Shown: positions 1 to 49,374, counted from the first letter of the stretch. The stretch is DNA of 64,000 nt from an uncultured Candidatus Saccharibacteria bacterium (GCA_964363965.1 CAYIKH010000001.1:727-64726); one strand, 5' to 3'. Program-made: numbers and translations. Notes: a model not told the origin generated them from the letters alone.

Positions 1-732
1 GCCATATATATCAACGATGTCTTTTTCCATAAGATCTGCCGGTTTTCCGTCAAAAATGATTTCTCCCCCCTTTAATCCGACTATTCTTGACCCGTATGTT
101 TTGGCAAAATCAAGAAAGTGCAAACATGAGATTAACGTTATTTTTTTTTCCGCACATATGTTTTTCAATAAATCCATTATTTCCTTCATCAATTTCGGGT
201 CTAAATTAGAAACGGGTTCGTCGGCAAGAATAATATCCGGTTTCTGCGATAAGGCCCGGGCAATAGCCACTCTTTGTTTTTCTCCTCCGCTTAATTCGGC
301 TACTCTTTTTTTCTCATAATGTTCCAAACCAACAGTTTTAATATTGTCTCGGACTATAAGATAATCCTCTTCAGAAAATCTTCCCAACAATGTATCAAAA
401 CTACTGTGATATCTCAATCTGCCGTTCATAACATTTTTAAAAACGCTCTCCCTGTCAATAAGGTTAAAATGCTGGAAAATCATTCCGATTTTTCCCCTTA
501 TTCTATGAACTTCTTTCGGGCCGGCTTTCAGAATATTATCATTATCAATGAAAATATTTCCTAACGACGGTTCTATCAATCTGTTTATAGATCTCAACAA
601 CGTTGTTTTGCCCGACCCACTCGAACCCACCAATATCAAACTCTCGCCCCTGCCAATGCGAAGTGTGATATTTTTTATGGCTTTCTTTTCGCTGTTTTTG
701 TATTGGTGGGTTAAATTTTCTATTTTTATCAC
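1..732 (-). CDS. phnC: Phosphonate ABC transporter ATP-binding protein, C-terminus cut by window edge
   Basis: Minus-strand translation reads VIKIENLTHQ...GESLILVGSSGSGKTTLL (Walker A)...LSGGEKQRVAIARAL (ABC signature)...ILADEP (Walker B). GTG start at 732 overlaps the phnD stop. The + strand ORFs in the track here are shadows. Confidence 0.8.
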   Translation of the reverse strand, partial: MIKIENLTHQYKNSEKKAIKNITLRIGRGESLILVGSSGSGKTTLLRSINRLIEPSLGNIFIDNDNILKAGPKEVHRIRGKIGMIFQHFNLIDRESVFKNVMNGRLRYHSSFDTLLGRFSEEDYLIVRDNIKTVGLEHYEKKRVAELSGGEKQRVAIARALSQKPDIILADEPVSNLDPKLMKEIMDLLKNICAEKKITLISCLHFLDFAKTYGSRIVGLKGGEIIFDGKPADLMEKDIVDIYG

Positions 733-733
733 T

Positions 734-1642
734 TTATTTTGCGCTTTTGGCGCTGGTAACATCCATACCCAATGCCTTTGCCGTTTGCCTAATAATATCG
801 TAATCGCTATCAGACACTTTTTGATATTTTGCGATATCTCCCCATCCACTAACTTTAAGAATTGTCTGTTCGTCCATTCCAATTAGAGCGTTCTGAATAG
901 ATTGCTTTAATGCTTCTGGTAAATCGCCTCTTACCGCAATAGGAGAGCCTGGAATCGGGTTGGAGGTGTATATAATTTTATTAACCAGCGGGTCTATTTC
1001 TCCCGCTTTTACCATTCTGTTATATGAACTGTCGCTGTCGGCGCCCGCGTCTACTTTTCTGTTGGCAATTGAATACTCTACTGCATTATGAGTTCCGGCG
1101 TAATATGTCACGCTAAAATCTTTATCTGGATTTATTCCGTTTTCTATTAATATTTTTCTTGGGATAAGGTTGCCTGAAGTGGAAGCCGGATCAACAAAAG
1201 CAAATTTCTTGCCCTTTAAATCTTGTAAGGTTTTTATCCCGCTATCCGCCCTTACGACAATAATTGAATGATAATCTGATTTTCCATCGCTTCTTCTTAT
1301 GCCGTTGACAATAGCCTCTGCGTTTGCAACGTTTGCGGCAATAATATAAGAAAACGGGCCAAACCAAGCCATGTCTATATGCTTGGCCCTCATTGCCTCA
1401 ATCGCGGCTGTATAATCTGAAGTTACCTGTATTTCAACCGGAATACCCAATTTTTCTGACAAGTAATCCCTTACCGGCTCATAGTTTCTCAACATTTCTT
1501 CTGCATCGTCTGCCGGGATAAGTCCCATTTTCAAAACTTGAATTTTTTCTTGGCTGCCCTCGCTTTTATTGCCGGTTTGCACTTGCCAGGCAATAAAAAT
1601 TATAACGAAAAGAGTAGTTAATCCTAGTATTATTTTTTTCAT
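734..1642 (-). CDS. phnD: Phosphonate/phosphite ABC transporter periplasmic substrate-binding protein
   Basis: 302 aa with an N-terminal signal/TM segment. PhnD-family hallmarks are present (KMGLIP, DMAWFGPFSY, ASTSGNLIPR). It lies directly upstream of phnC in the same orientation. Confidence 0.85.
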   Translation of the reverse strand: MKKIILGLTTLFVIIFIAWQVQTGNKSEGSQEKIQVLKMGLIPADDAEEMLRNYEPVRDYLSEKLGIPVEIQVTSDYTAAIEAMRAKHIDMAWFGPFSYIIAANVANAEAIVNGIRRSDGKSDYHSIIVVRADSGIKTLQDLKGKKFAFVDPASTSGNLIPRKILIENGINPDKDFSVTYYAGTHNAVEYSIANRKVDAGADSDSSYNRMVKAGEIDPLVNKIIYTSNPIPGSPIAVRGDLPEALKQSIQNALIGMDEQTILKVSGWGDIAKYQKVSDSDYDIIRQTAKALGMDVTSAKSAK

Positions 1643-1856
1643 ATTTTATATTTTAGTTAATCACTAATTCTATTCTTTTAAAATTTTCAAGATATTTTAT
1701 AAATCGCTCACTTAGCGTTCTTTTCGCCCACCAAAATAACATTTTTTGTCCTTACGATACAATCTCCGCCTTTAGTCCGCATATTATAAACTTCTTTATT
1801 TGCGGCCCGAATCTTCCAGAAATTTTGGTTATTATCAGAATTGTTCATACGTGTGC
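1643..1856 (-). promoter_or_regulatory. AT-rich intergenic region upstream of phnD-phnC, likely promoter
   Basis: A 214-bp, very AT-rich non-coding stretch sits between the phnD start and the upstream gene end. No specific boxes were verified. Confidence 0.3.
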
Positions 1857-2669
1857 CTACAATGGTCTATAAATATTCAAGCCTCGGCGAGCGCGAATCA
1901 AAGTTTGGATGCACTCAAATATGAAATGAATAAAAGATGCAACCCAACGAATAAGCAAGAAAACGCTCATAATGTTAAAAATCGCGAAAAGCATGATACC
2001 GCCGAGCATAAAGTAGGCCTCTCTCCTAAGAAAAAAAACTGTATAATTGGCGAAACGTTGTAAAGCCTTTGGCTGGTCATAGTCAGGAGATCGCGAATTT
2101 ACCGATGTCGGCTTTATGCCTGTCTTAATGCTCTCGACCTCCAGTAATGCTGCGTGGAGACGATATGACAAAATCGCCTGAAAAGAAATCACAAGCGACG
2201 CAGTAGCGCCAATAATAAGAATGAGGCCATGAGGCACTTGATTATTTAAAGAAATGAGCAAATAATCCGCCCGCATATACAATCCAATCGAAACCGCTAA
2301 GGGAATGATTGCCTTAATAACCGTATCTGTTACATCCTCCAAAAATTTACCAAAGTGACTCGTCTCCTTGCGAAACCTGGCAATATTGCCGTCAACAAAA
2401 TCTAGAAGAGCGCTGAAAAAAAGCACAACACTTCCCGCGACCATCAAAGCATATCCCCCCACGGCCAAAAGAAAAAATCCGATTATTGCAATTAGAAATC
2501 TAAGCAAGGTTACGCCGTTGGCGGAAAAGCCCAGCCGCACGAAGGGAACCGCCAAATAAAAAGAAAGCGGCCGGTACACAAAACGTGAGACGGAAATTTT
2601 TCTGTCTATGCTCTCTTTAAGCCCATAGGCTTCCCTCAACTGACTAATAATCGAATTATTACGATTCAT
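1857..2669 (-). CDS. CDP-alcohol phosphatidyltransferase family membrane protein
   Basis: 270 aa polytopic protein carrying the D-x2-DG-x2-AR...G-x3-D-x3-D motif (DFVDGNIAR...GKFLEDVTD). Confidence 0.75.
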   Translation of the reverse strand: MNRNNSIISQLREAYGLKESIDRKISVSRFVYRPLSFYLAVPFVRLGFSANGVTLLRFLIAIIGFFLLAVGGYALMVAGSVVLFFSALLDFVDGNIARFRKETSHFGKFLEDVTDTVIKAIIPLAVSIGLYMRADYLLISLNNQVPHGLILIIGATASLVISFQAILSYRLHAALLEVESIKTGIKPTSVNSRSPDYDQPKALQRFANYTVFFLRREAYFMLGGIMLFAIFNIMSVFLLIRWVASFIHFIFECIQTLIRARRGLNIYRPL

Positions 2670-2928
2670 TTAACGTTTTAAAACATAAAGATATTTCAAA
2701 CCATCATATCATAGTTATGTTAAATAACAAGACACGCAAATTGAGAGCGATCCGCTGAAGTGGCAGATAGAGATCGTATTGTCTCCGGCTACCGGGAGGA
2801 TGATACCATCGTCGGGCTCAGGCGTCGCGAGGTCCGCAGCCGCTGTTTTTATTTCCGGAGTTGTTATATATAGTAGAAGTGAAGTATTCGTTCAGAAACA
2901 GATTCTCACTGGGTGATGTTGTATTAAC

Positions 2929-3744
2929 ATGGATAGTCCCGAAAAACTCTTTTCGGTCAAGAACAAGGTCGTCATCATTACCGGCGGCGCAGGCATGCTG
3001 GGCATGGAGTATGCGACCGTTCTTGCTCGTGCCGGAGCGCGTGTGGTGCTCTTCGATATTGCCGATGAGCCCGTCCTCCGCGCCAAGGCCGCCGAGGTGC
3101 GTCGCCGCACCGGTCGCCGGCCCCTGGCGCTCCGCGTGGACATTACCGATGAGCGGGCGGCGAAGAATGCGGTGCGTCTGGTCATCCGGCGCTACGGGCG
3201 CGTTCACGCCCTTGTGAATAATGCGGCCATTAATCCTGAGGTGGAAGGCGGCAGCTCGCGTGCGCAGTTTTCCCCCTACGAACGCTATCCCATTGATCTC
3301 TGGCGCAAGGAGCTTGAAGTTGGGCTTACCGGCGCTTTCATCGTTACCCAGGCCGTGATTCCGGCTATGAAACGGCGGCGGGAAGGCGTCATCGTCAACA
3401 TTGGGTCCATCTACGGCGAGACCGCGCCCGACAACCGCATCTACCCGAAGGGGCAGTTTAAATCTATCGCCTATGCAACGGCGAAAGGCGCGATGCGGAA
3501 CTTCACCCGCGCGCTTGCCTCGTATTTGGCGCCGTTCCAGATCCGCGTGAACCAGCTGACGCCGGGCGGCGTCTGGGCCGGGCAGCCGCCGGCGTTCGTC
3601 AAGAAGTATTCAAGCCGCACCATGCTCGGGCGCATGGCCGAGCGCAATGATTTTAACGGCGCACTCCTCTTCCTCCTCTCCGATGCTTCGCGCTACATGA
3701 CCGGCGCCAATCTCGTGGTGGACGGCGGCTGGAGTGCGTGGTAA
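2929..3744 (+). CDS. Short-chain dehydrogenase/reductase (SDR) family oxidoreductase
   Basis: TGGAGMLG Rossmann motif, NNAAI, and the YATAKGA catalytic Y-x3-K. Confidence 0.8.
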   Translation: MDSPEKLFSVKNKVVIITGGAGMLGMEYATVLARAGARVVLFDIADEPVLRAKAAEVRRRTGRRPLALRVDITDERAAKNAVRLVIRRYGRVHALVNNAAINPEVEGGSSRAQFSPYERYPIDLWRKELEVGLTGAFIVTQAVIPAMKRRREGVIVNIGSIYGETAPDNRIYPKGQFKSIAYATAKGAMRNFTRALASYLAPFQIRVNQLTPGGVWAGQPPAFVKKYSSRTMLGRMAERNDFNGALLFLLSDASRYMTGANLVVDGGWSAW

Positions 3745-3886
3745 TACTTGTTATGTCAGAAAATTCGTCCAAAGTTCTCGGAATTGTCCCGCTGGATTTC
3801 ACCCGCGTGCCGATTCAGAAGCATTTCGTGGATTGAAGAGCGTCGGGCAATGTTCTCGGTGGTGATCCGAAGTTTCTGGCATCTCT

Positions 3887-4573
3887 ATGAAGTTTTCCTT
3901 GGTCATTCCGGCATATAATGAAGAGGAGAGTATCGGGGCGGCGGTGCGCGGTCTTCGGGATGCTCTCGGGCGCGTCGAGCATTCGTTCGAGATCATCGTG
4001 GTCAACAATGGTTCGACCGACGGGACTCCCCGCGTTCTCGAGGAGCTCCGAGCCGATGTTCCGGAGCTTGCGGTCGTGCGGGTAGACGTGAATCGCGGTT
4101 ACGGCAACGGGGTCATTGCTGGCCTCCGCGAAGCCCAAGGGGAAATTCTGGGTTGGGTGGATGCCGACAATCAGGTCGCGCCGGAAGACGTCGCGGCCGT
4201 ATATCGGGAAATCCTGCATGGGGGCGCTGATCTTGTCAAAGCCGTCCGGACGACGCGCCGTGAGTCGCGTTTCCGGAGGCTCCAGAGTGTTGTCTATAAT
4301 GCTATCTTCCGCATCCTTTTCGGCGGCAGATACCGCGATATCAACGCGAAACCGAAAATGTTTCGGCGCTCGCTTTGGGAGTCGCTCCACGTCACATCGC
4401 TTGATTTTTTCATCGATGCCGAGGTAATGATAAGGGTGATACGCGCTCGGCGTCAGATTCGGGAAGTCGAGGTATCGTGGGCGGCCCGCACCTCCGGCCG
4501 ATCGAGCGTGCAGCCGTCCGCGGCGGTCGAATTTTTGAAGAACTTGCTCCGCTATAAATTTTTTAGAGATTAA
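3887..4573 (+). CDS. GT2 glycosyltransferase, DPM1/GtrB-like polyprenyl-phosphate sugar synthase
   Basis: Begins SLVIPAYNEEESIGAAV... with a VNNGSTDGT DxD-region and a 228-aa architecture typical of Dpm1/ArnC-like enzymes. Confidence 0.75.
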   Translation: MKFSLVIPAYNEEESIGAAVRGLRDALGRVEHSFEIIVVNNGSTDGTPRVLEELRADVPELAVVRVDVNRGYGNGVIAGLREAQGEILGWVDADNQVAPEDVAAVYREILHGGADLVKAVRTTRRESRFRRLQSVVYNAIFRILFGGRYRDINAKPKMFRRSLWESLHVTSLDFFIDAEVMIRVIRARRQIREVEVSWAARTSGRSSVQPSAAVEFLKNLLRYKFFRD

Positions 4574-4578
4574 TTCGT

Positions 4579-5415
4579 ATGGAATCTCGTGCTTCCGCGT
4601 CGCTTCAGGATTCAAAGAGTGTCCATGCCGATATGCCGGTCGTGATTTTTTGCGGCGGGCGGGGCACGCGCCTCAAAGAGGAAACGGGCGCGATCCCGAA
4701 GCCCCTCGTGAAAATCGGCACGCATCCGATCCTGTGGCACATTATGAAGGGTTACCACGCCCAGGGATTCCGGAAGTTCGTGCTCTTAGTCGGGTATCTC
4801 GGTGAGAAGATAAAAGAGTATTTCTATACGTATCCGGTTTATCATGGCAGTTTCACGATCCGACCCGGTGCGAACGGGCCCAGGATCGATTACCATGACG
4901 TCCCGCCCGAAGACTGGGAGGTCACAGTGCTTGATACCGGCATTGACGTCGAAACCGGCGGACGGCTCCAGCGCGCGAAATCACATCTTGGGCAAGGGAG
5001 ATTTCTGCTCACCTACGGGGACGGCGTTGCCGATGTGAACGTAGAGGAGCTCATCCGGTTCCATGACACTCACCGTCCGGTCGTGACCATCACCGGGGTT
5101 CATCCGCCGAGCCGTTTCGGAGCCCTGGAGATGGATGGTCCGCTCGCCAAAACGTTTTTCGAAAAGCCGAGCACCCAGTCTTCCTACATCAACGGAGGTT
5201 TTTTCGTTGTGGAGCCGTCAATATTCATGTTTCTTTCCGATGACCCAAAACTGAATTTCGAGAAAGACGTTTTGCGCAAGCTCGCGCGCGAGTCAAACCT
5301 CGCGGTCTATCCCCATCACGGCTATTGGCAGTGCATGGATACCATTCGCGACGTCGAGTTCTTGAACGAGGAATGGGCCAAGAACCAAGCGCCCTGGAAA
5401 GTATGGAACGACTAA
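4579..5415 (+). CDS. rfbF: Glucose-1-phosphate cytidylyltransferase
   Basis: VIFCGGRGTRLKEETGAIPKPLV and GYHAQGF are RfbF signatures. The true start may be the ATG at 4633 (MPVVIF...). Confidence 0.8.
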   Translation: MESRASASLQDSKSVHADMPVVIFCGGRGTRLKEETGAIPKPLVKIGTHPILWHIMKGYHAQGFRKFVLLVGYLGEKIKEYFYTYPVYHGSFTIRPGANGPRIDYHDVPPEDWEVTVLDTGIDVETGGRLQRAKSHLGQGRFLLTYGDGVADVNVEELIRFHDTHRPVVTITGVHPPSRFGALEMDGPLAKTFFEKPSTQSSYINGGFFVVEPSIFMFLSDDPKLNFEKDVLRKLARESNLAVYPHHGYWQCMDTIRDVEFLNEEWAKNQAPWKVWND

Positions 5416-6410
5416 CACGCCACGCCGCCACCCCAAGGGGTGGTTTCTGGAGCAAGCGCCGAGTGCTGGTCACCGGCGGCGCGGGGTTCATTGGTTTTAA
5501 GCTCGCTTGTCATCTTCGCGATAGGGGAGCCGAGGTTACGCTCCTTGACATTAAAAAAGCATTGCCGAGCTTTGCCAACCCCGTCGACAAACGTACGTTC
5601 GTATATGTGCGCGGCAGCGTGACATCCCGGAAAACGGTTGCATCACTTCTTAAGCGCCGCAACGTCCAGACCGTATTCCATCTTGCCGCGGAGGCGATCG
5701 TGGGCCGGGCACTCCGCGATCCCGCGGCGGCGCTTGAAGCGAATGTCCGCGGCACGTGGGTGCTCCTCGAATGCGTGCGTCAAAATCCGAACGTGGCCGA
5801 GGTCGTTGTCGCGTCTTCAGACAAGGCGTACGGATCTCATGCGCGCCTTCCGTACCGCGAAGATGCCAAACTCGCCGGGCTGAATCCGTATGACTGCTCA
5901 AAAAGCTCGGCTGACCTCATTGCGCAAATGTATGCGCGTACCTATGCGTTGCCGGTTGCCGTTGCCCGGTGCGGGAACGTCTACGGCGGAGGGGACCTCA
6001 ACTGGAGTCGCCTTGTTCCCGATGCCCTCCGATCGCTCGCGAGCGGCACGCCGCTTCAGTTGAGGAGTGACGGCACGCATACACGGGATTACGTGTACGT
6101 GGATGATGTTCTCGACGGCTACCGCGTCCTAGCCGAGAATATTCGCCGGAAAAAACTCTCCGGCGAAGCGTTTAACTTCGGAACGAATGAACCGCTTTCG
6201 GTGCGCGATGTTTTGGGCCTAATCGCCCGCGCCGCGGGCCGAATGGTGCCCTCGAGAATCGCGAACACGCCCTCGCGCGAAATTCGTTCGCAGTATTTGG
6301 ATTGGAGTAAGGCTCGGCGCGTTCTGGGTTGGCGCCCGAATGTGCGGCGAACAATCGGTTTCAAGAAAACTGCCGACTGGTACACGGATTTTTTCAGCCG
6401 GCCAACATGA
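5403..6410 (+). CDS. rfbG: CDP-glucose 4,6-dehydratase
   Basis: FWSKRRVLVTGGAGFIGFKL, DKAYG and YDCSKSSADLI (Y-x3-K) are present. The start was chosen at MERLTR, so the full ORF frame extends further upstream; the gene overlaps the rfbF end. Confidence 0.75.
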   Translation: MERLTRHAATPRGGFWSKRRVLVTGGAGFIGFKLACHLRDRGAEVTLLDIKKALPSFANPVDKRTFVYVRGSVTSRKTVASLLKRRNVQTVFHLAAEAIVGRALRDPAAALEANVRGTWVLLECVRQNPNVAEVVVASSDKAYGSHARLPYREDAKLAGLNPYDCSKSSADLIAQMYARTYALPVAVARCGNVYGGGDLNWSRLVPDALRSLASGTPLQLRSDGTHTRDYVYVDDVLDGYRVLAENIRRKKLSGEAFNFGTNEPLSVRDVLGLIARAAGRMVPSRIANTPSREIRSQYLDWSKARRVLGWRPNVRRTIGFKKTADWYTDFFSRPT

Positions 6411-7690
6411 TGAATCTTGAATATCCCAAACACCACTTGGTGAACGTCGGGCATATACCCAATTGCCAAATATGCAATTCCGCGAAACTCCACACGGTCT
6501 TAGACCTCGGGCACCAGCCGTTATGCGACACGTTGCTCACCGACGCGATGCTTAACGAACCCGAGAAAACGTATCCGCTGCGGATGATGTGGTGCGAAGA
6601 GTGCACCGGCGCTCAAATTGATTACTGCGTTGACGGGAGTGAAGTGTACTATCCGGGTTATCCCTATAAGAGCGGTGTTACGAAGGAGCTCGTCGAGTAT
6701 CAAGTAAACATCGCGCGCGGTCTCGTGGGAAAATATGGATTAAAAGCTGGCGATCTCGTCGTTGATGTCGGTTCGAACGACGGAACGTTGCTCAGCGGGT
6801 TCACGGGTACGGGCATTCGGACGCTCGGAGTCGAGCCAACCAATATCGCGAAGATGGCCAAAGCCAGCGGCATCGAAACTGTGCAGTCCTTTTTCGACAT
6901 CAAGACGTCGCAGGCGATCAAGGAGCAATACGGTTCGGCCTCCGTAGTTATCACGACAAATACATTCGCCCACATGCGCACGATCGGAGAGTTCATCATG
7001 GGGGCCTATAATCTCCTGAACGATGACGGCGTATTCATGTCCGAAACCCATTATCTATTGGACGTCGTTCGGGGAGGGCAATTCGACACGATATATCACG
7101 AACATTTGCGGACGTACTCGCTCGCGTCCTTGATTCGATTGTTCGATCAGTATGATTTTACCCTGACCGATGCGGAACGGGGGGAGAGATACGGCGGCAA
7201 TATTCGCGTGTATGTTGCGAAGGGGAAGGGGAGGCCCGTCTCCCCGGCAGTCGCGGCGTTATTGCAACTGGAACAATCATCCGGGCTTGGAGAATATAAA
7301 ACGTATGCGGCATTTGCCGAGCGCGTGAAAAAAGCGCGCCTCGAATTCATGGATTTTCTCATTCATGCTAAAAAGGCCGCGAAGTCCATTGTCGGGAACT
7401 CGTGCCCGGGGCGATCCGTGACGCTTCTCAATTACTACGGGGTAGATCCGGAATTGCTGCCGTACGTCGCCGAACAGCCCGCTTCTTTGAAGTTGGGCAT
7501 GTACGTGCCGGGCACGCATCAGCCGGTGGTCGCGAACCAGCGGCTCATTGACGAGCAGCCGGATTTTGTCGTGCTGTTGGCGTGGCACTACGCAGAACCC
7601 ATTATGGAGCAATTGAAAGCTCGGGGACTGAAGTCGGATTTCATCATTCCGCTGCCCGATTTTCGAATCGTGAAAAATTCCGAGGTGTGA
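6407..7690 (+). CDS. NDP-hexose C-methyltransferase (TylC3/Methyltransf_13+14 type), CDP-pathway associated
   Basis: An N-terminal Cys-rich Zn motif (CQICNS...CDTLL...CEEC) precedes the SAM fold (VVDVGSNDGTLL) and a C-methyltransferase C-terminal domain. Its ATGA overlaps the rfbG stop. Confidence 0.7.
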   Translation: MMNLEYPKHHLVNVGHIPNCQICNSAKLHTVLDLGHQPLCDTLLTDAMLNEPEKTYPLRMMWCEECTGAQIDYCVDGSEVYYPGYPYKSGVTKELVEYQVNIARGLVGKYGLKAGDLVVDVGSNDGTLLSGFTGTGIRTLGVEPTNIAKMAKASGIETVQSFFDIKTSQAIKEQYGSASVVITTNTFAHMRTIGEFIMGAYNLLNDDGVFMSETHYLLDVVRGGQFDTIYHEHLRTYSLASLIRLFDQYDFTLTDAERGERYGGNIRVYVAKGKGRPVSPAVAALLQLEQSSGLGEYKTYAAFAERVKKARLEFMDFLIHAKKAAKSIVGNSCPGRSVTLLNYYGVDPELLPYVAEQPASLKLGMYVPGTHQPVVANQRLIDEQPDFVVLLAWHYAEPIMEQLKARGLKSDFIIPLPDFRIVKNSEV

Positions 7691-8787: not shown

Positions 8788-10749
8788 TTGTTCATGTTTA
8801 CCCTGCTGATATTGAGTCTTTTTTTCGCCGCCACCCTTGCTTTCGGATGCGTTGTTGCCGCTGTTTTTTTGCCGAGCTCCGAACGGCGTTGGTACGTTGT
8901 GGCGCCGATCGTGCTCATTATTGGCCTGAACGGCTACGTAATGATCCTGAACCTCGTTGCATATTTGGTCCCTGTCCAGCGCGCGTTCTGGGTGGTGCTT
9001 ACGGGGATGAGTTTGGCCGCAGCGGCGGGATTGATGGCGATGCGGCGCCGGAAAACATCCCTGATTGCGCCGGATGACTTGAAACCTCGCCAACGGCAAT
9101 TCCTCGTGTTCACGACATTCGTTGTCATGCTCCTTGCCGGGTTCGTTTCCTACCTCACACTTGGAGATGATATCTATCTCGTGAATATGCCGCTTGCATC
9201 AACCATCAGCGAGGGAAACTTCCCCGTGCTCGATCCATCCGATCCGAGTTTTCGCGTCGCCTACCATTACGGGCCCGACCTGCTCATCGCGGCCCTTCAC
9301 CGTACGGCCCATATACCGCTCTGGCTCGGCTATGATATTCAAACCTTCCTTTTCATTGGTGCGGCGTTCCTCATGGCGTTTGCCCTCGCGCGTTCCGTTG
9401 TTTTGCGTTTCCGGAGCGCGTTCCTTGCCGCATTGCTGATGCTCTATGGGAGCGGCCTCGTCTGGATGAAGGGGTTCCACGGCATTGCCGTATTTTGGCA
9501 AAAATTAAGCGGCGGAAGCGCCGGCCCGGCCCCATGGAAATTCTTTGCCGACATGGCATTTCCTAATTTTGATTCGAGCATTGCGGCCACCACGAGCCAT
9601 ACCGTTATCATGGGCATGCCAATCGTCCTGCTCGTGTTGTATCTCTATAACCAGGCCATTGACGCCGAGCGCGATGCTTGGCTTCGGCCGACACTGCTTG
9701 CTGGCGTGCTTTACGGCTACACCGCTTTCATAGTCGAAACGCATTTCATCGTGATGTTCGCGGCATTTATCGGCATGCTGTTTCTCGAGGGAACGCGGTA
9801 CCTCTGGTCCGGGCGGCCTGCCGCTCGGCGCGATCAACTTCTGCGCCTTGCCGGCGTTACGGGTATTGTCATCGTCGTCGCCCTGCCCCTCGCATTTCTC
9901 CAGGGCGGGATACTCACGACCGTGAGCGATCCCGGCGCGACGCATCGATTCGAGCTGGTCAAACATTTTTGGAGCCAAGGCATTACCGATAAGCAGGTGC
10001 TTCCGTTCCGCTGGGCATTCTTCCAGGACTTCGGTTTGCCCCTTATCTTGTTTCTCCCCGCCCTTTATTTTTTCCGGAATGATCGGCGCGTTCAGTTCAT
10101 TGCGCTTATCGCCCTCGGAGCATTCCTGGTGCCGCTCCTTATCCGCTACACGCCATCACCCCGGGAAATGGAACGGCTTTTCGGTTTTGCGACACCGCTC
10201 TTTGCGTTTCTTGCCGGTCTTTTTCTTTCGGAGGTCGCTGCGGCATTCACGCTCAATCGTCATAGAAAAATGATCTCGTTCGCATTGCTTCTCCCCATCT
10301 TTGCCATGGTTGGCACCGCTCTTGCGGCCCAGGCCTTCGGTATTGCGTACCCGCTTGTGCGGCCCCAGGGCAGACATTATATGCTTGCCGCCGTTCCTCC
10401 CGAAGTTCCGGCAATTGACCAGAAGGCCTACGTCTGGATTCGGGAGCACACCATCCTTCAGGATTGGTTTTTCCCCTACAGTCAGGATTTTATCCGGGAA
10501 GTCGGGCGCTTCACTCCCGGGCCGTATTTTCCGGGCGTGACTCGGCCGAGTGTCATTACTGACTACGAGGAGGCCGTTCGTTCATGCAGTCGCGAGTCGT
10601 TTGCAAAACTCGGGGTTACCTACCTCTACGTTTCACCGCGGTTTCCGATCGCCGATTTTAAAATCCGGTGTCTGCCGAATCTTCACGCGACTCCGCTCTA
10701 TCAAGATGGTGTGGGCCCAGAAATGCGGAGCGTGTATCGGCTTGAATAA
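8788..10749 (+). CDS. Large polytopic membrane protein with C-terminal soluble domain; candidate GT-C-type glycosyltransferase
   Basis: 653 aa with more than 10 predicted hydrophobic helices, then a ~150-aa non-hydrophobic tail. No motif was confidently assigned. Confidence 0.45.
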   Translation: MFMFTLLILSLFFAATLAFGCVVAAVFLPSSERRWYVVAPIVLIIGLNGYVMILNLVAYLVPVQRAFWVVLTGMSLAAAAGLMAMRRRKTSLIAPDDLKPRQRQFLVFTTFVVMLLAGFVSYLTLGDDIYLVNMPLASTISEGNFPVLDPSDPSFRVAYHYGPDLLIAALHRTAHIPLWLGYDIQTFLFIGAAFLMAFALARSVVLRFRSAFLAALLMLYGSGLVWMKGFHGIAVFWQKLSGGSAGPAPWKFFADMAFPNFDSSIAATTSHTVIMGMPIVLLVLYLYNQAIDAERDAWLRPTLLAGVLYGYTAFIVETHFIVMFAAFIGMLFLEGTRYLWSGRPAARRDQLLRLAGVTGIVIVVALPLAFLQGGILTTVSDPGATHRFELVKHFWSQGITDKQVLPFRWAFFQDFGLPLILFLPALYFFRNDRRVQFIALIALGAFLVPLLIRYTPSPREMERLFGFATPLFAFLAGLFLSEVAAAFTLNRHRKMISFALLLPIFAMVGTALAAQAFGIAYPLVRPQGRHYMLAAVPPEVPAIDQKAYVWIREHTILQDWFFPYSQDFIREVGRFTPGPYFPGVTRPSVITDYEEAVRSCSRESFAKLGVTYLYVSPRFPIADFKIRCLPNLHATPLYQDGVGPEMRSVYRLE

Positions 10750-13986: not shown

Positions 13987-14852
13987 GTTCGCGGCGGTTT
14001 CCGAAGTTTGTCGCCTGCGCCCGGTGCGGCGGTTTTTTTCTGGCTGATCCTGCCGCGGTGGGGACAGAATATGATGATGAGTATTTCGAGGCCTCCGGCG
14101 CGCCAACGCTCGCGAGCCGCTTGGCGCGACCGATATTCAATTTCTTTCTCTACCTTCGTTTTCGGAAGGTGCGTTCATTCCTCGGGGAGGGGCGTGCTCG
14201 CGTACTCGATTACGGCGCGGGCTCGGGGGCGCTGGTCGGCTACCTTCGCGCACGCGGAATTGATGCCGTTGGCTATGACCCCTCGCCAGCGGCAGTTATG
14301 GCTGCCGTTTCGAAGGGCATCCCGGTTTCCCGCGACCTTCCGCCGGGGCCGTATGACCTCATTATGTTTTGGCATAGTTTGGAGCATAGCGATAGGCCAA
14401 AACAAGTTCTCGATGAGGCGCGCGGACTGTTCGCTCCCGGCGGGAAACTCCTCATCGCCGTTCCCAATGCGGCGAGTTGGGAAGCCCGCCTCGCCGGTGA
14501 ACGCTGGTTTCACTATGATTATCCGTTTCATCGGGTTCAATTTACTCCCACTGCGATTACCATGCTACTGGAGCGCATCGGCTTCCGTGCCCTCAGCATC
14601 GATTTCTTCAATCCTGAATATACTGTCTCAGGATTTTTACAAACCTTTCTTAACTTCCTTTTTCTAAAAAATGCGCTCTACACGGTGGTCAGCCACCGAC
14701 GGGCGAACGTGTCGCAACAGAAGGCGATGTTTTCGGCAATGGCGGGGTTGCTCTTCCTCGTGGTGTTCTCGCCGCTCATCGGCGCATTCTTTATTCTCGA
14801 ATTCATTTTTCATAAAACCGGGGCCATAATCGTTACCGCAGAGCGACTATGA
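13926..14852 (+). CDS. Class I SAM-dependent methyltransferase with N-terminal Cys4 motif
   Basis: CPICG...CARCG is followed by VLDYGAGSGAL and a C-terminal hydrophobic segment. The start at MATLSK overlaps the GT2 end, and the longer ORF frame begins at 13737. Confidence 0.65.
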   Translation: MATLSKNAECPICGRSSSPLSSRRFPKFVACARCGGFFLADPAAVGTEYDDEYFEASGAPTLASRLARPIFNFFLYLRFRKVRSFLGEGRARVLDYGAGSGALVGYLRARGIDAVGYDPSPAAVMAAVSKGIPVSRDLPPGPYDLIMFWHSLEHSDRPKQVLDEARGLFAPGGKLLIAVPNAASWEARLAGERWFHYDYPFHRVQFTPTAITMLLERIGFRALSIDFFNPEYTVSGFLQTFLNFLFLKNALYTVVSHRRANVSQQKAMFSAMAGLLFLVVFSPLIGAFFILEFIFHKTGAIIVTAERL

Positions 14853-14919
14853 ACATGGAGCTCCGCGCAGCAGACCTGCCCGCCGGCAGGCGGGGCTGCC
14901 CAGTATCTCCAGTTCACCC

Positions 14920-15076
14920 AGCACATAAATTTACATCCGTCTCTGTCAAGACATTGATTTTGTGCGCGGTGAACTTCATTTTACGTTTGAGACCGTTGCA
15001 AATTTATGTGCTGGGTTTATTTGTTTGTCGTCATTCATCCCCGCCCCGACCGCGGTCGGGGCGGGGTATTCTGGGC
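14920..15076. repeat. Long-range inverted repeat plus GC-rich perfect hairpin in a 340-bp intergenic region
   Basis: Arm 14920-14932 (agcacataaattt) is the reverse complement of 15000-15012 (aaatttatgtgct). Separately, 15049-15076 is ccccgccccgacc-gc-ggtcggggcgggg, a 13-bp perfect stem. Confidence 0.6.
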
Positions 15077-15191
15077 AAACAAATAATCACTGGCAAAGAA
15101 GTTGCACGCTGCGTTTTCGTGCGCTAAGCTTGGAAATTGAGTGCAAGCCGTATGACTGGTCTTTCTTAGGATTTACGGTGAGTCACAAACT

Positions 15192-23993: not shown

Positions 23994-24725
23994 ATGTTTA
24001 ACAACACCCACATTCTCGCGATCATCCCGGCCCGTGGCGGTTCGAAGGGTATTCTCCGGAAGAACCTCCGGTTAGTGGCTGGATTGCCGCTAGTTGTCCA
24101 TAGCATTCTTGCCGCCAAAGCTTCACGCTTAATTGAGCGCACTATTGTCTCTACTGACGACGAGGAGATCGCCGAGGTGGCGCGGAGCTACGGGGCCGAA
24201 GTTCCTTTTCTCCGGCCGGCGGATCTGGCTCTCGACACCACTCCGGATTTCCCGGTTTTCGAGCACTGTCTGAATTGGCTTGAGGAGAGTGAGGAGTACC
24301 GGCCCGATATCGTGGTTCATCTCCGGCCCACCGGCCCCCTTCGCACCGGGTTAGAAATCGACGAGGCGGTCGAGCTCCTGGAGCGTCATCCCGAGGCCGA
24401 CTCGGTCCGCTCGGTGCACGAGCCGGATAAATCTCCCTACAAAATGTGGCGGCTCGAAGGTTCGTACATGGTGCCTTTTTTACGTGATCCCGACTACCCC
24501 GAGCACTATAACGCCCCCCGCCAACTCCTGCCCAAGGTCTACGCTACTAATGCCAACATCGGGGTGGTCCGCTACCGGACACTCCGGGAGAAAGGTTCGG
24601 TCATAGGAGAGCGCGTTTTGCCCTATCCTGTCTCCGGGCCGCACGTGGACATTGATACTGAACTCGATCTTGAACTCGCCGAGCTTCTCTTTCGGAAGCG
24701 CGCGCGGGAGGGCCGCGGGTATTGA
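23994..24725 (+). CDS. CMP-ulosonic acid / acylneuraminate cytidylyltransferase family (CTP_transf_3)
   Basis: AIIPARGGSKGILRKN...VSTDDEEIA is the canonical NeuA/KdsB-family N-terminus. Confidence 0.7.
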   Translation: MFNNTHILAIIPARGGSKGILRKNLRLVAGLPLVVHSILAAKASRLIERTIVSTDDEEIAEVARSYGAEVPFLRPADLALDTTPDFPVFEHCLNWLEESEEYRPDIVVHLRPTGPLRTGLEIDEAVELLERHPEADSVRSVHEPDKSPYKMWRLEGSYMVPFLRDPDYPEHYNAPRQLLPKVYATNANIGVVRYRTLREKGSVIGERVLPYPVSGPHVDIDTELDLELAELLFRKRAREGRGY

Positions 24726-26131
24726 TGCAGCGGCGTTTTATGTCGACGGTCTTCCTCGCCCTAGCCAACTCCAGCCACTACTCGGGTGTCCTCCGGACGC
24801 GCTTTATTGCTGAACTCGCCCGGCACTTTCGCGTCCTCGTTCTCACTCCGCAGCTGGATGATGCGATCGTCAAACGCGATCGCTATTTTCGGAATGGAGG
24901 CGTTTCTTACCATCGTTTCCCTATTACCTATCCGCGTTTCTGGAATGTTTTGGACAGGTATCTGCGCGTGCCGCTTGTCTCCTCCTTCGACCACCTCACC
25001 TACATGCGCTATTTCTATCAGCGGTCCCACGCGCCGATCCGGAAACTCCTCATGGCCTCCCGACGGCTCTTCCCGGCATTCCTCTTCACCACCGATCGGT
25101 TGACGCTCTGGGAGGTGCGTTGGGCTCCGCAGGGTAAGGTACTAGCCGAGCTCTTTCGCACTCACACCCCGATCCTCGTCCTCACCGCCACCCCTGGATT
25201 CACGCCCTTCGAAGCCGAAATCATCGTCGCGGCTAAGCGCTTAGGGGTTCAGACCGCGGCTATCAGCATCAACTACGACAACTTGACTTCCAACGGCAAG
25301 CTCATCCGTAAAACCGACTATCTCGCCGTCTGGAACAATCTCATGCGGCGCGAAGCTAAAGTTTTGCATCGCTATTCGGATGAGCGTTTAGGCCTAGTCG
25401 GGTGTCTGCGCTTTGACCATTATTTTTATGATGAGGAGAATCCGCGTTTCCCCTCGCGCGAAGATTTTCTGAAAGCCAAGGGCCTTGATCCCGGCCGGAA
25501 AACACTGGTCTTTGCCGGCCCGACCCCAACCAATTACCCTCCGCGGCGTGAGTTTATTGCCGAGCTCTTGCGTCTTAAACGCGATGGGCACCTTGACGGC
25601 GATCCAAATATCCTGGTTCGCATTCATCCTAACGATAGTCTGGCAACGTATCGCGAGTTCCTTGGGATGCCGGGCATGCATTTTGAAGGCGCAAGTCGCA
25701 ACGTGCGTCTGGATGGCGGCAAGGGGGTGAGCATGGACGAGGAAGACCTTCTGAACCTTACCGCCACCCTTAAATACGCTGATGTTGTTTTGAATTTCGC
25801 CTCGACCGTGGCCATGGAGGCAGCTATCTTTGACCGGCCGGTCATCAATGTCGCCTTTCCCGACTACCGCCGAATCGTGTATCAATATGAATACAATAAA
25901 CACATCGTTGATACTGGCGGCGTGCGTTTAGCCCGAAGCCCGGAGGAGCTTAGTGAACTAGTAAACATGTATTTCCGCAACCCGGCTCTTGATCGCGAAG
26001 CGCGGGCCAAACTCCTTGAATTTTTTATCCCGTTTCGCGACGGCCGGAGCTGGGCGCGAACTATGGACTTCATTGTGAAAATTACCAAGCCCGGTAGTGA
26101 GAGCTTCTCTCTACTACCGGGCAAGCCGTGA
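24722..26131 (+). CDS. TagF-like CDP-polyol phosphotransferase family protein (GT-B), paralogue 1
   Basis: The C-terminus VVLNFASTVAMEAAIFDRPVINVAFPDYRR...YEYNKHIVDTGGVRLARSPEEL parallels the TagF motif region (..ITDYSS...KP.I....D.EEY...YDYE...GP...T.EEL). Confidence 0.55.
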   Translation: MMQRRFMSTVFLALANSSHYSGVLRTRFIAELARHFRVLVLTPQLDDAIVKRDRYFRNGGVSYHRFPITYPRFWNVLDRYLRVPLVSSFDHLTYMRYFYQRSHAPIRKLLMASRRLFPAFLFTTDRLTLWEVRWAPQGKVLAELFRTHTPILVLTATPGFTPFEAEIIVAAKRLGVQTAAISINYDNLTSNGKLIRKTDYLAVWNNLMRREAKVLHRYSDERLGLVGCLRFDHYFYDEENPRFPSREDFLKAKGLDPGRKTLVFAGPTPTNYPPRREFIAELLRLKRDGHLDGDPNILVRIHPNDSLATYREFLGMPGMHFEGASRNVRLDGGKGVSMDEEDLLNLTATLKYADVVLNFASTVAMEAAIFDRPVINVAFPDYRRIVYQYEYNKHIVDTGGVRLARSPEELSELVNMYFRNPALDREARAKLLEFFIPFRDGRSWARTMDFIVKITKPGSESFSLLPGKP

Positions 26132-27501
26132 AGATGAGAACCGTCCTGATCACAATCTATCAGGCCGTGGAGGCCAAAAACATTCTTCGGACTGATATCA
26201 TACGCTCTTTACTCGCCGAGCCGGATGTCCGTGCAGTATGCCTTACTAAATTTAAGGAGCGGGCTGATTATTACCGGCAGGAGATTCCGCATGAGCGGAT
26301 AATTTATGATTACTGCGACCAGGAACCTGGCGGGGCGCTGGAGCGATACTTCAGCGCTTTAAAGTTTCATCTTATCCGCACGGCCACTACTGATCTCAGG
26401 CGCCGCATGAATTTTGAGGAATCTGGAAATTATTTTTCTTATCTCATTGGTCGAGCTCTAAACTTCCTGCTGGCCCGTGGATCAATACGGAGGCTGGCGC
26501 GGTTTTTGGATTATCACCTAGTTTCTGATTCGGGGTTTGGCGATATTCTTAGGCGCTATCAGCCGGATGTTGTTTTTTTTGCTCATCTTTTTGATGATGC
26601 TGAAATTGCGCTTCTTCGCCAGGCCAAAAAGCGCGGAATCCCAACAGTCGGCTTTATTAATTCATGGGATAAATTGACGGCCCGTTCGGCTGTGCGCCTG
26701 CTTCCGGACAGGCTGGTGGTTTATAACGACATTGTAAAGCAAGAGGCCGTGGAGCACGCCGACATGCCGCCGGAGAAGATCGTGGTTTCGGGCATACCGC
26801 AGTATGATCAATATTTTACCCCAGGACCCGTTTCACGACAGGAATTTTGCGCCAAGGCCGGACTTGATCCAAAACGCGCAATTGTGTTATTGGCGCCCAT
26901 GGGTCGGGCTTTTTCCAACTCGGATTGGGAGATGATTGATATGCTTCATGAAATTATTTCTCCAAGCCAAGGTCTGCCGTTATCCCAGCTTTTGGTGCGC
27001 TTCCAGCCCAATGACTTTATTGATGAGGTTGAAATTTCGCGCCGGCCATGGCTGAGATATTCATTGCCCGGGATTCGCTTTGGAACCAGGCGCGGAGGAG
27101 ACTGGGACATGAGATTTGAAGAGCTAACTCATCTTAATGATACCCTTTTTCATTCCAGTCTCCTGGTTTCCTATGCTTCCAGCATGAGCGTGGATGCGGC
27201 CATATTCGGCAAGCCGGTGATCAACATTGATTTTGAATTGAAGCCCGGGGAGTCCATGTCAAAATCGCCAACTTTTTATTACCAGACCGATCATTATAAA
27301 AAAGCCCTTTTAACCGGCGGCATCAGGTTAGTGAAGAGTCGCGATGAGCTGATACAATGGCTCCGGCGTTACCTCCAAGATCCGAGCCTTGATCGTGAAG
27401 GACGGGAGCGGTTGGTTAAAGAGCAGTGCGGTTTAGTTGACGGTAAGGCCGGAGAGCGAATCGCCAGAGCCATTTTCGGGGTATTACAAGTATTACAATA
27501 A
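26128..27501 (+). CDS. TagF-like CDP-polyol phosphotransferase family protein, paralogue 2
   Basis: VSYASSMSVDAAIFGKPVINIDF...YYQTDHYKKALLTGGIRLVKSRDEL. It overlaps paralogue 1 by ATGA. Confidence 0.55.
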   Translation: MKMRTVLITIYQAVEAKNILRTDIIRSLLAEPDVRAVCLTKFKERADYYRQEIPHERIIYDYCDQEPGGALERYFSALKFHLIRTATTDLRRRMNFEESGNYFSYLIGRALNFLLARGSIRRLARFLDYHLVSDSGFGDILRRYQPDVVFFAHLFDDAEIALLRQAKKRGIPTVGFINSWDKLTARSAVRLLPDRLVVYNDIVKQEAVEHADMPPEKIVVSGIPQYDQYFTPGPVSRQEFCAKAGLDPKRAIVLLAPMGRAFSNSDWEMIDMLHEIISPSQGLPLSQLLVRFQPNDFIDEVEISRRPWLRYSLPGIRFGTRRGGDWDMRFEELTHLNDTLFHSSLLVSYASSMSVDAAIFGKPVINIDFELKPGESMSKSPTFYYQTDHYKKALLTGGIRLVKSRDELIQWLRRYLQDPSLDREGRERLVKEQCGLVDGKAGERIARAIFGVLQVLQ

Positions 27502-34373: not shown

Positions 34374-35231
34374 ATGAACATTACCGTTGTTGGCGGAAAG
34401 GGTTTTATCGGCAAGCCGCTTGTGGCCGAACTTAGCAAGCGTCATCGCGTCGAGACTTGGGATCTTCCGGAAGTTGATCTCCGCGATCCGGCCGCAATTG
34501 CCAAACGACTTGAAGAGAGGAGGCCAGATATGGTGGTCAATTTAGCTGCAGTGCTGGGAACGATGTATTCTAAAAACATCCAGGAGATTTTTGCGACAAA
34601 TGTTGTTGGGAATATAAATCTTGTAGAGGCCTGTCTCGCGCATGGGATAAAAAGATTCGTATTTGCAAGTTCCTTGACTGTGCACGGTCCGAACGAAATA
34701 GGAAAACATCATACGTCGCACTCACCCTTTAATCCTATCCAGGCCTATGCCGCCAGCAAAGCCGCTGCGGAATACAGTCTAATGCAATATTCGAAACATA
34801 ACGGTGTGACGACCGTGGTATTGCGGCCTGCAAGTGTACTGGGGGAGGGCACGCCAATGAATCATGCGCCTAGTGATTTTGTAAAAACACTACTTCGCGG
34901 CGATTCGATTGAGCTTTTTGGCGGAGGGGAACATGAAAGAGAGTGGCTATGGATTGATGATGTTGTATCTGGGTTTTGCAAGGCGGTAGATTTTTGCGCC
35001 AAAGCTCCAGCTGGCTACCACCCGTTTTTTATTTCCGCAAACCGCATCTCAATGAAGGATCTTGCCGAAAGATGCGTTAGCTTTATTGGTGGTTCAGTAA
35101 AAGTCGCTGCTGGTACTGCTCAAGCTTTTTCGTTGACATGCGATGCATCAGATACCCAAAAAATACTTGGTTGGAGAGTCGAGTATACTATAGACGATAT
35201 CATTCAAAACCTGATTAAAATTTTTAAATAG
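34374..35231 (+). CDS. NAD-dependent epimerase/dehydratase (extended SDR)
   Basis: ITVVGGKGFIGKPL; YAASKAAAE (Y-x3-K). Confidence 0.7.
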   Translation: MNITVVGGKGFIGKPLVAELSKRHRVETWDLPEVDLRDPAAIAKRLEERRPDMVVNLAAVLGTMYSKNIQEIFATNVVGNINLVEACLAHGIKRFVFASSLTVHGPNEIGKHHTSHSPFNPIQAYAASKAAAEYSLMQYSKHNGVTTVVLRPASVLGEGTPMNHAPSDFVKTLLRGDSIELFGGGEHEREWLWIDDVVSGFCKAVDFCAKAPAGYHPFFISANRISMKDLAERCVSFIGGSVKVAAGTAQAFSLTCDASDTQKILGWRVEYTIDDIIQNLIKIFK

Positions 35232-41678: not shown

Positions 41679-41681
41679 ATT

Positions 41682-43674: not shown

Positions 43675-44532
43675 ATGGGGTTTCTCGTAGCCATCGCAAA
43701 CGCCGCGGCGGTCTCGCTCCAGGATGTCTTCGTCAAGAAGCTCACCGGCGAGAATAAGTTTTTCCTCATTTGGGTTCGGATTGCGGGCGCACTCCCGCCG
43801 CTCGCCGTGCTTGTCACCGTTTTCGCCGCCTGGTCGGTGCCGTCGTGGCAGTTCTGGGCGCTTATCATCGGGGTGAGCGTTCCGCTCGAAACCTTTGCCT
43901 TCTGGCTCGGCTACACCGCGCTCCAGAAGATGCCCCTCTCGCTTGCCGCGCCTCTCCACGGCTTCACCGGTGTGTTCCTGGTTCCGGTGGGCTACCTCAT
44001 GCTCGGCGAGGTGCCGAGCGTATTCGGCCTCATGGGCATCCTCTCGGTTTTCGTCGGCGCCTTTTTCCTCGGACGCGCTGGCTCGACAAGCGGAATCCTC
44101 GGTTCCTTCCAGAATCTTCTTCGGACGCCGGGCTCGTGGATCGTGCTCGCCGCCGCGTTCATTGTTACCATCCCGATCTCGATTGCGAAAATTTCCTTCC
44201 AGTACGCGCCGCCGCTCCTCACGGCTTTCTATATCGCAGCCGCGATGGCCTTAGCGCTGATTCCCTTTGCTCTTCGCGGCGGCGCGAGCATCCGGATCCG
44301 GGGCAATGGCCGTTTCATCGCGGCCTCGGCAGTGGTCTCGGGTGCCTCGCTCGGCCTCCACTACACCGGCCTTTCACTCCTGCCCGCGGCCTACTTCATT
44401 TCGACAAAGCGCCTCTCCATTCTCTTCAATGTCCTTTACGGGAAGTTTCTCTTCAGCGAGGAGCATATCGGCGAGCGCTTCATCGGCGCCGCTCTTATGG
44501 TCGCCGGCGTCGCTCTGATCGCGCTGGGGTAG
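43675..44532 (+). CDS. DMT/EamA-family membrane transporter
   Basis: 285 aa with about 10 hydrophobic helices in a duplicated EamA-like arrangement. Confidence 0.55.
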   Translation: MGFLVAIANAAAVSLQDVFVKKLTGENKFFLIWVRIAGALPPLAVLVTVFAAWSVPSWQFWALIIGVSVPLETFAFWLGYTALQKMPLSLAAPLHGFTGVFLVPVGYLMLGEVPSVFGLMGILSVFVGAFFLGRAGSTSGILGSFQNLLRTPGSWIVLAAAFIVTIPISIAKISFQYAPPLLTAFYIAAAMALALIPFALRGGASIRIRGNGRFIAASAVVSGASLGLHYTGLSLLPAAYFISTKRLSILFNVLYGKFLFSEEHIGERFIGAALMVAGVALIALG

Positions 44533-49324: not shown

Positions 49325-49332
49325 TGGGCGGC

Positions 49333-49374
49333 AGGAATCAGGAATGTTGATGCGCTTCATGATTCCTGATTCTT
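49333..49374. terminator. Hairpin at convergent gene junction (possible bidirectional terminator)
   Basis: gaatcaggaat (49335-49345) pairs with attcctgattc (49362-49372). There is no clean U-tract. A third copy of aatcaggaat lies at ~49292 inside the upstream gene tail. Confidence 0.4.

Follow-up and report, generated by a model that had tools for sequence, protein, structure and literature searches.

We examined the left end of a 64,000-nucleotide stretch of DNA from an uncultured Candidatus Saccharibacteria bacterium (GCA_964363965.1, CAYIKH010000001.1:727-64726; here, the window), where a short AT-rich group of phosphonate-related genes lies beside a long GC-rich surface-glycan locus. The AT-rich module, encoded on the minus strand, holds phnC, phnD, the remnant of a methyltransferase gene, and a gene for a CDP-alcohol phosphotransferase family membrane protein (Table 1). 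A divergent intergenic region separates it from a gene for a short-chain dehydrogenase (SDR), the first of the glycan operon. The module would be read as a single operon in the order CDP-alcohol phosphotransferase, S-adenosylmethionine (SAM) methyltransferase (internally deleted), PhnD, PhnC, and onward past the window. The gene names phnC, phnD, and CDP-alcohol phosphatidyltransferase had been given by an earlier reading made from the sequence alone (here, the sequence-only reading), and they agree with the TIGR02315, TIGR03431, and PF01066 matches.

Table 1 Features at the left end of the window
Feature	Position	Strand	Evidence and remarks
phnC, phosphonate-type ABC transporter ATPase	1-732	-	TIGR02315, 295.8 bits (cutoff 266.1), model 1-243/243; Pfam ABC_tran
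phnD, periplasmic phosphonate-binding protein, 302 aa	734-1642	-	TIGR03431, 281 bits (cutoff 261.1); PF12974, E=3.9e-74
Spacer between methyltransferase remnant and phnD	1643-1707		Alignments
Class I SAM methyltransferase remnant, 46 codons	1708-1848	-	Codons 1-17 fused in frame to last ~29; junction 1797/1798
CDP-alcohol phosphotransferase family membrane protein, 270 aa	1857-2669	-	PF01066, E=4.5e-13, 50.3 bits (cutoff 22)
Divergent intergenic region	2670-2928		259 bp, GC 0.417; holds the GC step; nucleotide homology to the L090 island stops at 2738
SDR, first gene of the GC-rich glycan operon	2929-3744	+	Pfam adh_short/adh_short_C2; GC 0.623, synonymous-site GC 0.745

A compositional step between two regimes

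The GC content is 0.392 in positions 1-2800 and 0.541 in positions 2801-64000, which places the left end ~7 standard deviations (sd) below 2.8-kb windows of the remainder (mean 0.540, sd 0.020, minimum 0.499) and bears out the sharp boundary noticed by the sequence-only reading. In successive 200-bp windows, GC rises from 0.38 (2601-2800) through 0.46, 0.475, and 0.57 to 0.695 (3001-3200), and a two-segment maximum-likelihood model puts the change point at ~2980. The step is thus located at ~2750-3000, inside the divergent region between the CDP-alcohol phosphotransferase gene and the SDR gene. This is close to the place given before (2750-2900). Promoter-like hexamers are present on the minus strand at 2730-2703; promoter- and terminator-like sites in 1600-3000 are no more numerous than in shuffled controls.

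The deficit extends to codon usage. GC at synonymous sites (GC3s) is 0.34-0.43 in phnC, phnD, and the CDP-alcohol phosphotransferase gene, compared with 0.600 +/- 0.068 in 56 other open reading frames (ORFs; z -2.5 to -3.8), and the codon log-likelihood of the left genes under backbone usage gives z -2.6 to -2.7. By gene, GC and GC3s are 0.38 and 0.36 (z=-3.5) for phnC, 0.40 and 0.34 for phnD, and 0.426 and 0.43 for the phosphotransferase gene, whose GC at second codon positions (GC2) is 0.365. The sequence-only reading had proposed comparing phnCD with secA and murB, and the values are indeed far apart (0.34-0.36 versus 0.54-0.65 in the housekeeping genes described below). The tetranucleotide distance of the module is extreme (z=10), whereas its GC-normalized (Karlin) dinucleotide signature is no outlier (z=1.5), and the contrast between module and backbone is therefore mainly one of base composition. 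We dropped the dinucleotide signature as an independent proof of foreignness, since it is not significant.

The remainder of the window forms a single regime. GC is 54.6% in the glycan region (2929-48253) and 52.8% in the right flank (48254-64000), and GC3s is 0.604 and 0.589, respectively (Mann-Whitney p=0.51). Housekeeping genes at 54.6-63.7 kb, encoding MurB, SecA, a DinB-type polymerase, and a release factor (RF), have GC3s of 0.54-0.65. SecA, MurB, and DinB of the window fall into 90%-identity clusters together with NCBI proteins labeled "Patescibacteria group bacterium". Because the glycan locus shares composition and codon usage with the housekeeping genes, we take the ~54% GC regime to be the backbone and regard the glycan locus, taken as one, as backbone-like with a few deviant genes. 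The three regimes and the "intermediate" right flank of the sequence-only reading accordingly reduce to two regimes; the glycan locus is indistinguishable from the flank and is merely the more variable of the two (GC3s range 0.40-0.78).

The same join and a methyltransferase deletion in independent assemblies

Exact-protein look-ups identified three small contigs from Hainich groundwater metagenomes, from 0.1- and 0.2-um filter fractions according to their record names, that overlap the left end of the window. L003 (sample ERZ1292638) is 99.55% identical over 735-5374, L091 (ERZ1292635) is 97.9% identical over 410-4568, and L001 (ERZ1292629) is 100% identical over 1798-4339. All three, each from a different sample, are colinear with the window across the GC step at 2670-2928, and two of them, L003 and L091, represent distinct strains (20 and about 30 mismatches). 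Two more distant contigs share the arrangement: in L090 (15.2 kb, from another study), both the gene order and the GC step recur, and L085, a Logan contig, has the same divergent pairing of SDR and CDP-alcohol phosphotransferase genes.

All independent assemblies of this population break in phnC or phnD, at 735 in L003, at 410 in L091 (at an N-gap), and apparently near position 1 in the source contig of the window. These breaks fit a cassette common to several co-occurring genomes that tangles the assembly graph.

These contigs also uncovered a discontinuity at 1797/1798 that the sequence-only reading had missed. L001 matches the window without a difference as far as 1798, beyond which it runs on as an intact class I SAM methyltransferase. 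The first 17 codons of the remnant are those of the methyltransferase N-terminus. The C-terminal part of the remnant is 79% identical to the C-terminus of a 255-aa methyltransferase in L086 (described below) and 75% identical to that of the 251-aa methyltransferase in L090, and the window has no counterpart of L090 positions 6338-6947. By these alignments, the junction, which has AAAT microhomology and is identical in the window, L003, and L091, marks an in-frame internal deletion of ~0.6 kb. We considered position 1798 as an insertion boundary or chimeric join and rejected both, because what follows it encodes, in frame, the C-terminus of that very methyltransferase. With the gene intact in L001 and deleted in the window, L003, and L091, both alleles coexist in well H43, a natural experiment on the pace at which an acquired module is remodeled. 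In the adjacent spacer, a ~47-nt AT-rich stretch (1643-1690) is absent from L091 and L090, in which the spacer leads directly to the phnD start.

A larger phosphonate island in L090

L090 extends past the point at which the window ends. It contains a 9.1-kb stretch at 38-50% GC with 57-61% GC on both sides. Following Glyphos_transf genes and an SDR gene at 59-61% GC, the order is, divergently, CDP-alcohol phosphotransferase (49.6% GC), an intact 251-aa methyltransferase (47.4%), PhnD (42.6%), PhnC (37.8%), and PhnE (42.9%; TIGR01097, 285 bits, cutoff 216.7), the last directly after phnC. The stretch continues with a fusion of a PF01467 cytidylyltransferase to phosphoenolpyruvate (PEP) mutase (TIGR02320, 380 bits, cutoff 319.55), a 395-aa protein, a phosphonopyruvate decarboxylase (Ppd; TIGR03297, 505 bits, cutoff 312.5), and an Fe-alcohol dehydrogenase, after which GC returns to 57%. 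By this comparison, the module in the window is probably the end of a larger phosphonate island, which the sequence-only reading did not recognize.

Protein identity between the window and L090 rises sharply on entering the module, from 41-55% for Glyphos_transf proteins and 56% for the SDR to 80% for the CDP-alcohol phosphotransferase, 89% for PhnC, and 92% for PhnD. Nucleotide identity follows (71%, 79%, and 88.7%, the last for phnDC); similarity and GC shift at one and the same place.

The 395-aa protein of L090 (10999-12186) matches methylphosphonate synthase (MPnS; PDB 6b9s, E=2.3e-50) better than HEPD (6b9r, E=1.9e-32). Its residues H151, Q155, F165, I187, and H193 correspond to H148, Q152, F162, I184, and H190 of 6b9s, whereas in HEPD 6b9r the Phe and Ile are replaced by Tyr and Gly. 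Born et al. reportedly found in 2017 that these residues separate MPnS from HEPD. By homology, its 2-His-1-Gln ligands, and Phe and Ile at the discriminating positions, we predict the L090 protein to be an MPnS. The same MPnS-type residues occur in L094:2651-3769, L093:2607-3779, L014:15321-16493, and L026:14626-15375, and the homologue in L011 has Y at the Phe site. These MPnS homologues sit in phosphonate clusters of groundwater CPR bacteria (Patescibacteria) and DPANN archaea. MPnS has been assigned to marine taxa (PMC9381506), and we found no paper joining mpnS with CPR or DPANN names in the literature searched.

Relatives of PhnC, PhnD, and the CDP-alcohol phosphotransferase

PhnD and PhnC both score above the curated NCBIfam equivalog cutoffs for the PhnCDE transporter. 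The PF12974 family also takes in phosphite and hypophosphite binders. The phnC gene starts with a GTG codon at 732 and is essentially whole, its stop codon lying just past the start of the window. Among 185,579 species genomes (GTDB representatives, a set that does not include the genome of the window), the relatives of PhnD at 69-80% identity belong to Woesearchaeota, Pacearchaeota, Aenigmatarchaeota, and unclassified archaea, with Nealsonbacteria and Saccharibacteria interspersed; beyond DPANN and CPR, identity is 63-72% in Dehalococcoidia and then falls below 40%. A neighbor-joining tree without support values nests PhnD in a DPANN-dominated clade. PhnC is 60-70% identical to the PhnC proteins that adjoin PhnD in the DPANN/CPR loci; a PhnC scan of metagenome contigs was swamped by generic ABC motifs, with relatives at no more than 46% identity among the matches listed. 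Viral contigs scanned with PhnD yielded no relatives, and there is thus no sign of a phage vector.

In the DPANN/CPR loci, PhnC and PhnE adjoin PhnD (PhnE in about 28 of the loci). Several DPANN loci have a homologous methyltransferase gene between phnD and phnC, and in L011, L014, and L026 PhnDCE is adjoined by Ppm, Ppd, alcohol dehydrogenase, and MPnS-like genes. The phnD and phnC genes follow their local host in GC, over a range of 27-55%, across 29 related loci. The only exceptions are this window and L090, in which phnD and phnC lie 14-17 points below their flanks.

Within the population itself, phnD is more polymorphic than its neighbors. The density of single-nucleotide polymorphisms (SNPs) between the window and L003 is ~1.1% in phnD (10 in 908 bp) and ~0.3% in neighboring genes, and L091 differs from the window by 1.65% in phnD and by 0.1-0.5% in the CDP-alcohol phosphotransferase, SDR, and GT2 genes. 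Recombination with other cassette alleles or mixed assembly could account for the raised density.

Proteins of the CDP-alcohol phosphotransferase family share the motif D-x2-DG-x2-AR-x8-G-x3-D-x3-D. The protein encoded in the window carries the signature D90-x2-D93-G94-x2-A97-R98-x8-G107-x3-E111-x3-D115, in which the third acidic residue is Glu, as in its close subfamily; distant members have Asp. It scores below all NCBIfam equivalog cutoffs for lipid synthases; archaetidylinositol phosphate synthase comes closest (~54.9-58 bits; cutoff 180). Members of the subfamily are few (15 homologues in 5.8e9 proteins). Their genes adjoin those for an SDR and Glyphos_transf proteins in both L085 and L090 and a methyltransferase gene in L086-L088, L090, and L001, and the SDR of the window is 56-57% identical to the SDRs that divergently adjoin the gene in L085 and L090. 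Since members always occur in Glyphos_transf, methyltransferase, or phosphonate contexts, we rejected a role in lipid synthesis only. One group of orthologues comes from the same aquifer. In L086:2916-5352 (also L087 and L088; Hainich well H52), from an organism of 38.5% GC, an orthologous transferase (63% aa identity) is followed after 9 nt by a methyltransferase that is 75% identical to that of L001 and by a second methyltransferase, all downstream of Glyphos_transf and 2-hydroxyacid dehydrogenase genes. The transferase and methyltransferase genes may have come as a pair from a low-GC organism of this type.

Origin of the AT-rich module

Taken together, these observations make it likely that the AT-rich 2.7 kb came in by lateral transfer and forms the proximal end of a low-GC operon, not yet ameliorated, beside a resident surface-glycopolymer locus. 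Composition and codon usage are both atypical against a 61-kb host reference, and the phylogenetic signal is incongruent, both in the relatives of PhnD (a tree without support values) and in the jump of identity between the window and L090. Signatures of mobility, such as an integrase or transposase, a tRNA gene, or direct repeats, are lacking. The PhnDCE core would be a cassette circulating among low-GC DPANN archaea and CPR bacteria, and a phnD of 40% GC in a 54% genome would have the look of a recent, unameliorated acquisition from a donor of ~35-43% GC. The GC step would fall in the 259-bp divergent region because foreign DNA meets native DNA there. What we observed are the composition, the colinearity across independent assemblies, the gene identities, the identity gradient, and the taxonomic spread of relatives; the direction and the mechanism of transfer are our inference. 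With no integrase, tRNA gene, or flanking repeats, entry may have been by homologous recombination in conserved flanks of the glycan locus, much as in capsule-locus switching. Patescibacteria and DPANN archaea have been reported to exchange genes (PMC12455944).

Several points weigh against this interpretation. The backbone reference is 61 kb of one contig rather than the whole metagenome-assembled genome, and the GC-normalized dinucleotide signature does not set the module apart. The window holds no tRNA gene and no Rfam family, and the L090 island has no integrase among its genes and no significant flanking repeats. The left boundary of the low-GC segment lies outside the window, and we found no assembly that reaches left of position 1, so that the ppm, ppd, and MPnS-like genes are seen in relatives such as L090. 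PhnD identities of 70-80% fit many donor lineages, and some taxon labels in the PhnD tree, which come from record titles, are doubtful. Finally, the adjacency of SDR and transferase genes is kept in L085, where the transferase (72% aa identity) has a host-like GC of 60%. The position of the transferase may thus be ancestral to such loci, and by this comparison a low-GC allele may have displaced a long-resident gene there instead of being newly inserted.

A second scenario, which we regard as a serious though less probable contender, dates the acquisition to an ancestor that the lineages of the window and of L090 had in common and has low GC and high similarity kept since then by repeated recombination with co-resident low-GC alleles. 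It would explain why two lineages whose glycan genes are only 41-56% identical share an insertion site and a gene order, why GC is graded from 38% to 50% inside the L090 island, and why SNPs are denser in phnD than in flanking genes. The glycan genes, however, may evolve faster or be swapped themselves, and the L090 contig has no housekeeping genes for calibration; with present data, an old acquisition is indistinguishable from an independent or recent transfer.

It is improbable that the genes are native and owe their low GC to function, through AT-coded residues of membrane and secreted proteins, low expression, or local mutational bias. In favor of this, the phosphotransferase is membrane-integral and its gene has low GC2, relatives keep that gene next to the SDR gene, and the dinucleotide signature is not deviant. 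Nevertheless, the deficit is greatest at synonymous sites, and other membrane proteins in the window keep GC3 at 0.62-0.64 (8788-10749 and the Wzy-like protein at 45923-48253). Orthologues of phnD and phnC in 29 other genomes take the GC of their hosts, up to 55%, as does the 60% GC transferase gene of L085, and the module proteins are far closer to L090 than neighboring genes are.

A chimeric join near 2750, at which an assembler would have linked organisms of ~39% and ~54% GC, had been raised by the sequence-only reading and is very unlikely. The abruptness of the change would suit such a join, as would the low coverage of these metagenomes (contig names give cov 3-5) and the fact that the independent contigs all end within phnC or phnD (735, 410, and 1), as if the cassette were hard to assemble. 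Against this stand three separately assembled contigs from three samples that carry the same order across the step, two of them from distinct strains; L090, with the SDR/phosphotransferase/methyltransferase/PhnD/PhnC order, the GC step, and high GC again on its far side; and the SDR/transferase adjacency of L085. Least credible of all is that the GC-rich glycan island is foreign and the AT-rich end the true backbone: glycan loci are classic hot spots of horizontal transfer and GC3s in this one varies widely, but MurB, SecA, DinB, and RF share its GC and codon usage, and in L090 high GC resumes beyond the 9-kb low-GC island. Of the mosaic horizontal acquisition proposed earlier, the part concerning the AT-rich module therefore holds up, whereas the part concerning the GC-rich glycan island does not.

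The boundary itself is routine, and the event is an ordinary kind of horizontal acquisition with an interesting cargo. As for the first reading, what is left after this analysis is two regimes, no chimera, and a probably foreign AT-rich part.

Several individual features of the backbone stand out. Within the glycan locus, a gene for a NAD-dependent epimerase/dehydratase (34374-35231; GC3s 0.40, z=-3.0) is the sole other gene that is AT-rich like the left module; its origin is probably foreign and separate. GC3s is unusually high in the gene at 43675-44532 (0.78, z=+2.7), as it is in the SDR gene that opens the locus (0.745). The worst fit to backbone codon usage is that of a 92-codon ORF at 14849-15127 (z=-3.8), which may not be a real gene. 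In the right flank, 52184-54177 has the most deviant dinucleotide signature of the window and encodes two low-complexity predicted surface proteins. The first, of 264 aa, is Gly/Thr/Ser-rich with no Pfam match; the second, of 377 aa, has two PG_binding_1 domains, a poly-Gly run, and Pro-Ala linkers.

Predicted function and comparison with known systems

The glycan locus encodes three TagF-like (Glyphos_transf) paralogues, a NeuB-type synthase, and a UDP-GlcNAc 2-epimerase (24722-27501, 36825-38243, and 40542-42923), a gene content suggestive of a teichoic-acid-like polymer that includes a nonulosonic acid, here in a Patescibacteria genome. By analogy with L090, the closest long relative, the adjoining AT-rich module may serve phosphonate decoration of the cell surface, its most likely role being the uptake of phosphonate and the transfer of a CMP-activated phosphonate to a surface polymer or lipid. 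Under the scheme that L090 suggests, PEP mutase, Ppd, and alcohol dehydrogenase would make 2-hydroxyethylphosphonate (HEP), which the MPnS-type enzyme may turn into methylphosphonate. The cytidylyltransferase domain fused to PEP mutase would make the CMP-phosphonate, the CDP-alcohol phosphotransferase homologue would pass its phosphonyl group on to an acceptor, either lipid or glycan, and phosphonate would be imported or recaptured by PhnCDE. There is no PEP mutase or Ppd gene within the window, and contigs of the PEP-mutase relatives P0151, P0156, and P0153 do not overlap it; from the parallel with L090, we infer that the biosynthetic genes may lie elsewhere in its own genome.

More speculatively, and with the balance of probability on the other side, the AT-rich segment could be the transport and transfer arm of a mobile, MPnS-containing phosphonate island that groundwater Patescibacteria and DPANN exchange across domains and that decorates glycopolymer or lipids with (methyl)phosphonate, the CDP-alcohol phosphotransferase homologue acting as phosphonyl transferase. 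If so, ultra-small aquifer prokaryotes would be an unrecognized source, outside the ocean, of methylphosphonate, a methane precursor. Confirmation would point to episymbionts with phosphonate-decorated surfaces and to methylphosphonate formation in groundwater. The 70-80% identity of PhnDCE across DPANN and CPR indicates that gene flow between the two ultra-small radiations includes phosphorus metabolism. The interest of the locus lies in this cross-domain circulation of PhnDCE and in its linkage, in a related CPR genome, to a complete HEP/MPnS-type pathway beside a teichoic-acid-like locus.

The transporter can be compared with PhnCDE of the Escherichia coli phn operon type. PhnC and PhnD of the window pass the equivalog cutoffs, and PhnE is next to them in relatives; here its gene would fall to the left of position 1. 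Unlike that type, there is no linkage here to C-P lyase (phnGHIJKLM) or phnWX catabolic genes; the linkage is to a methyltransferase and a CDP-alcohol phosphotransferase and, in relatives, to phosphonate biosynthesis genes. The latter protein has the PF01066 domain, the signature, and the polytopic membrane character of PgsA, PssA, phosphatidylinositol phosphate (PIP) synthase, and archaetidylinositol phosphate (AIP) synthase. It differs from them in the Glu at its third acidic position, in falling far below the equivalog cutoffs, and in belonging to a tiny subfamily found in glycan and phosphonate contexts rather than lipid operons.

As a genomic feature, the module resembles the horizontally acquired islets of capsule, O-antigen, and teichoic acid loci. 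The common traits are an abrupt step in GC and codon usage at an operon boundary, a surface-modification cargo, conserved glycan flanks able to mediate homologous replacement, and strain-level polymorphism. What sets it apart is that no integrase, tRNA gene, insertion sequence element, or direct repeats accompany it, that only one boundary is in the window, that the host belongs to Patescibacteria, and that relatives of the cassette are mainly in DPANN archaea.

The closest functional parallels are the phosphonate tailoring (Pnt) clusters and the Fom1-type cytidylyltransferase-PEP mutase clusters (Rice et al. 2019, PMC6697681), and the ppm-ppd-pdh-mpnS cluster for methylphosphonate in Nitrosopumilus maritimus. 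None of the biosynthetic genes are inside the window, and L090 differs from these clusters in having a CDP-alcohol phosphotransferase homologue in place of a LicD-like enzyme, in having a PhnDCE importer inside the cluster, and in the setting of groundwater CPR/DPANN hosts. What L090 has in common with them is the PF01467-Ppm fusion, Ppd, the Fe-alcohol dehydrogenase, the MPnS homologue, and a position embedded in a glycan locus. Of all Ppm proteins, 23.6% are PF01467-Ppm fusions; the cytidylyltransferase (CyTase) domain of Fom1 produces CMP-HEP, and the tailoring of cell surfaces is the role of most phosphonate clusters (PMC6697681).

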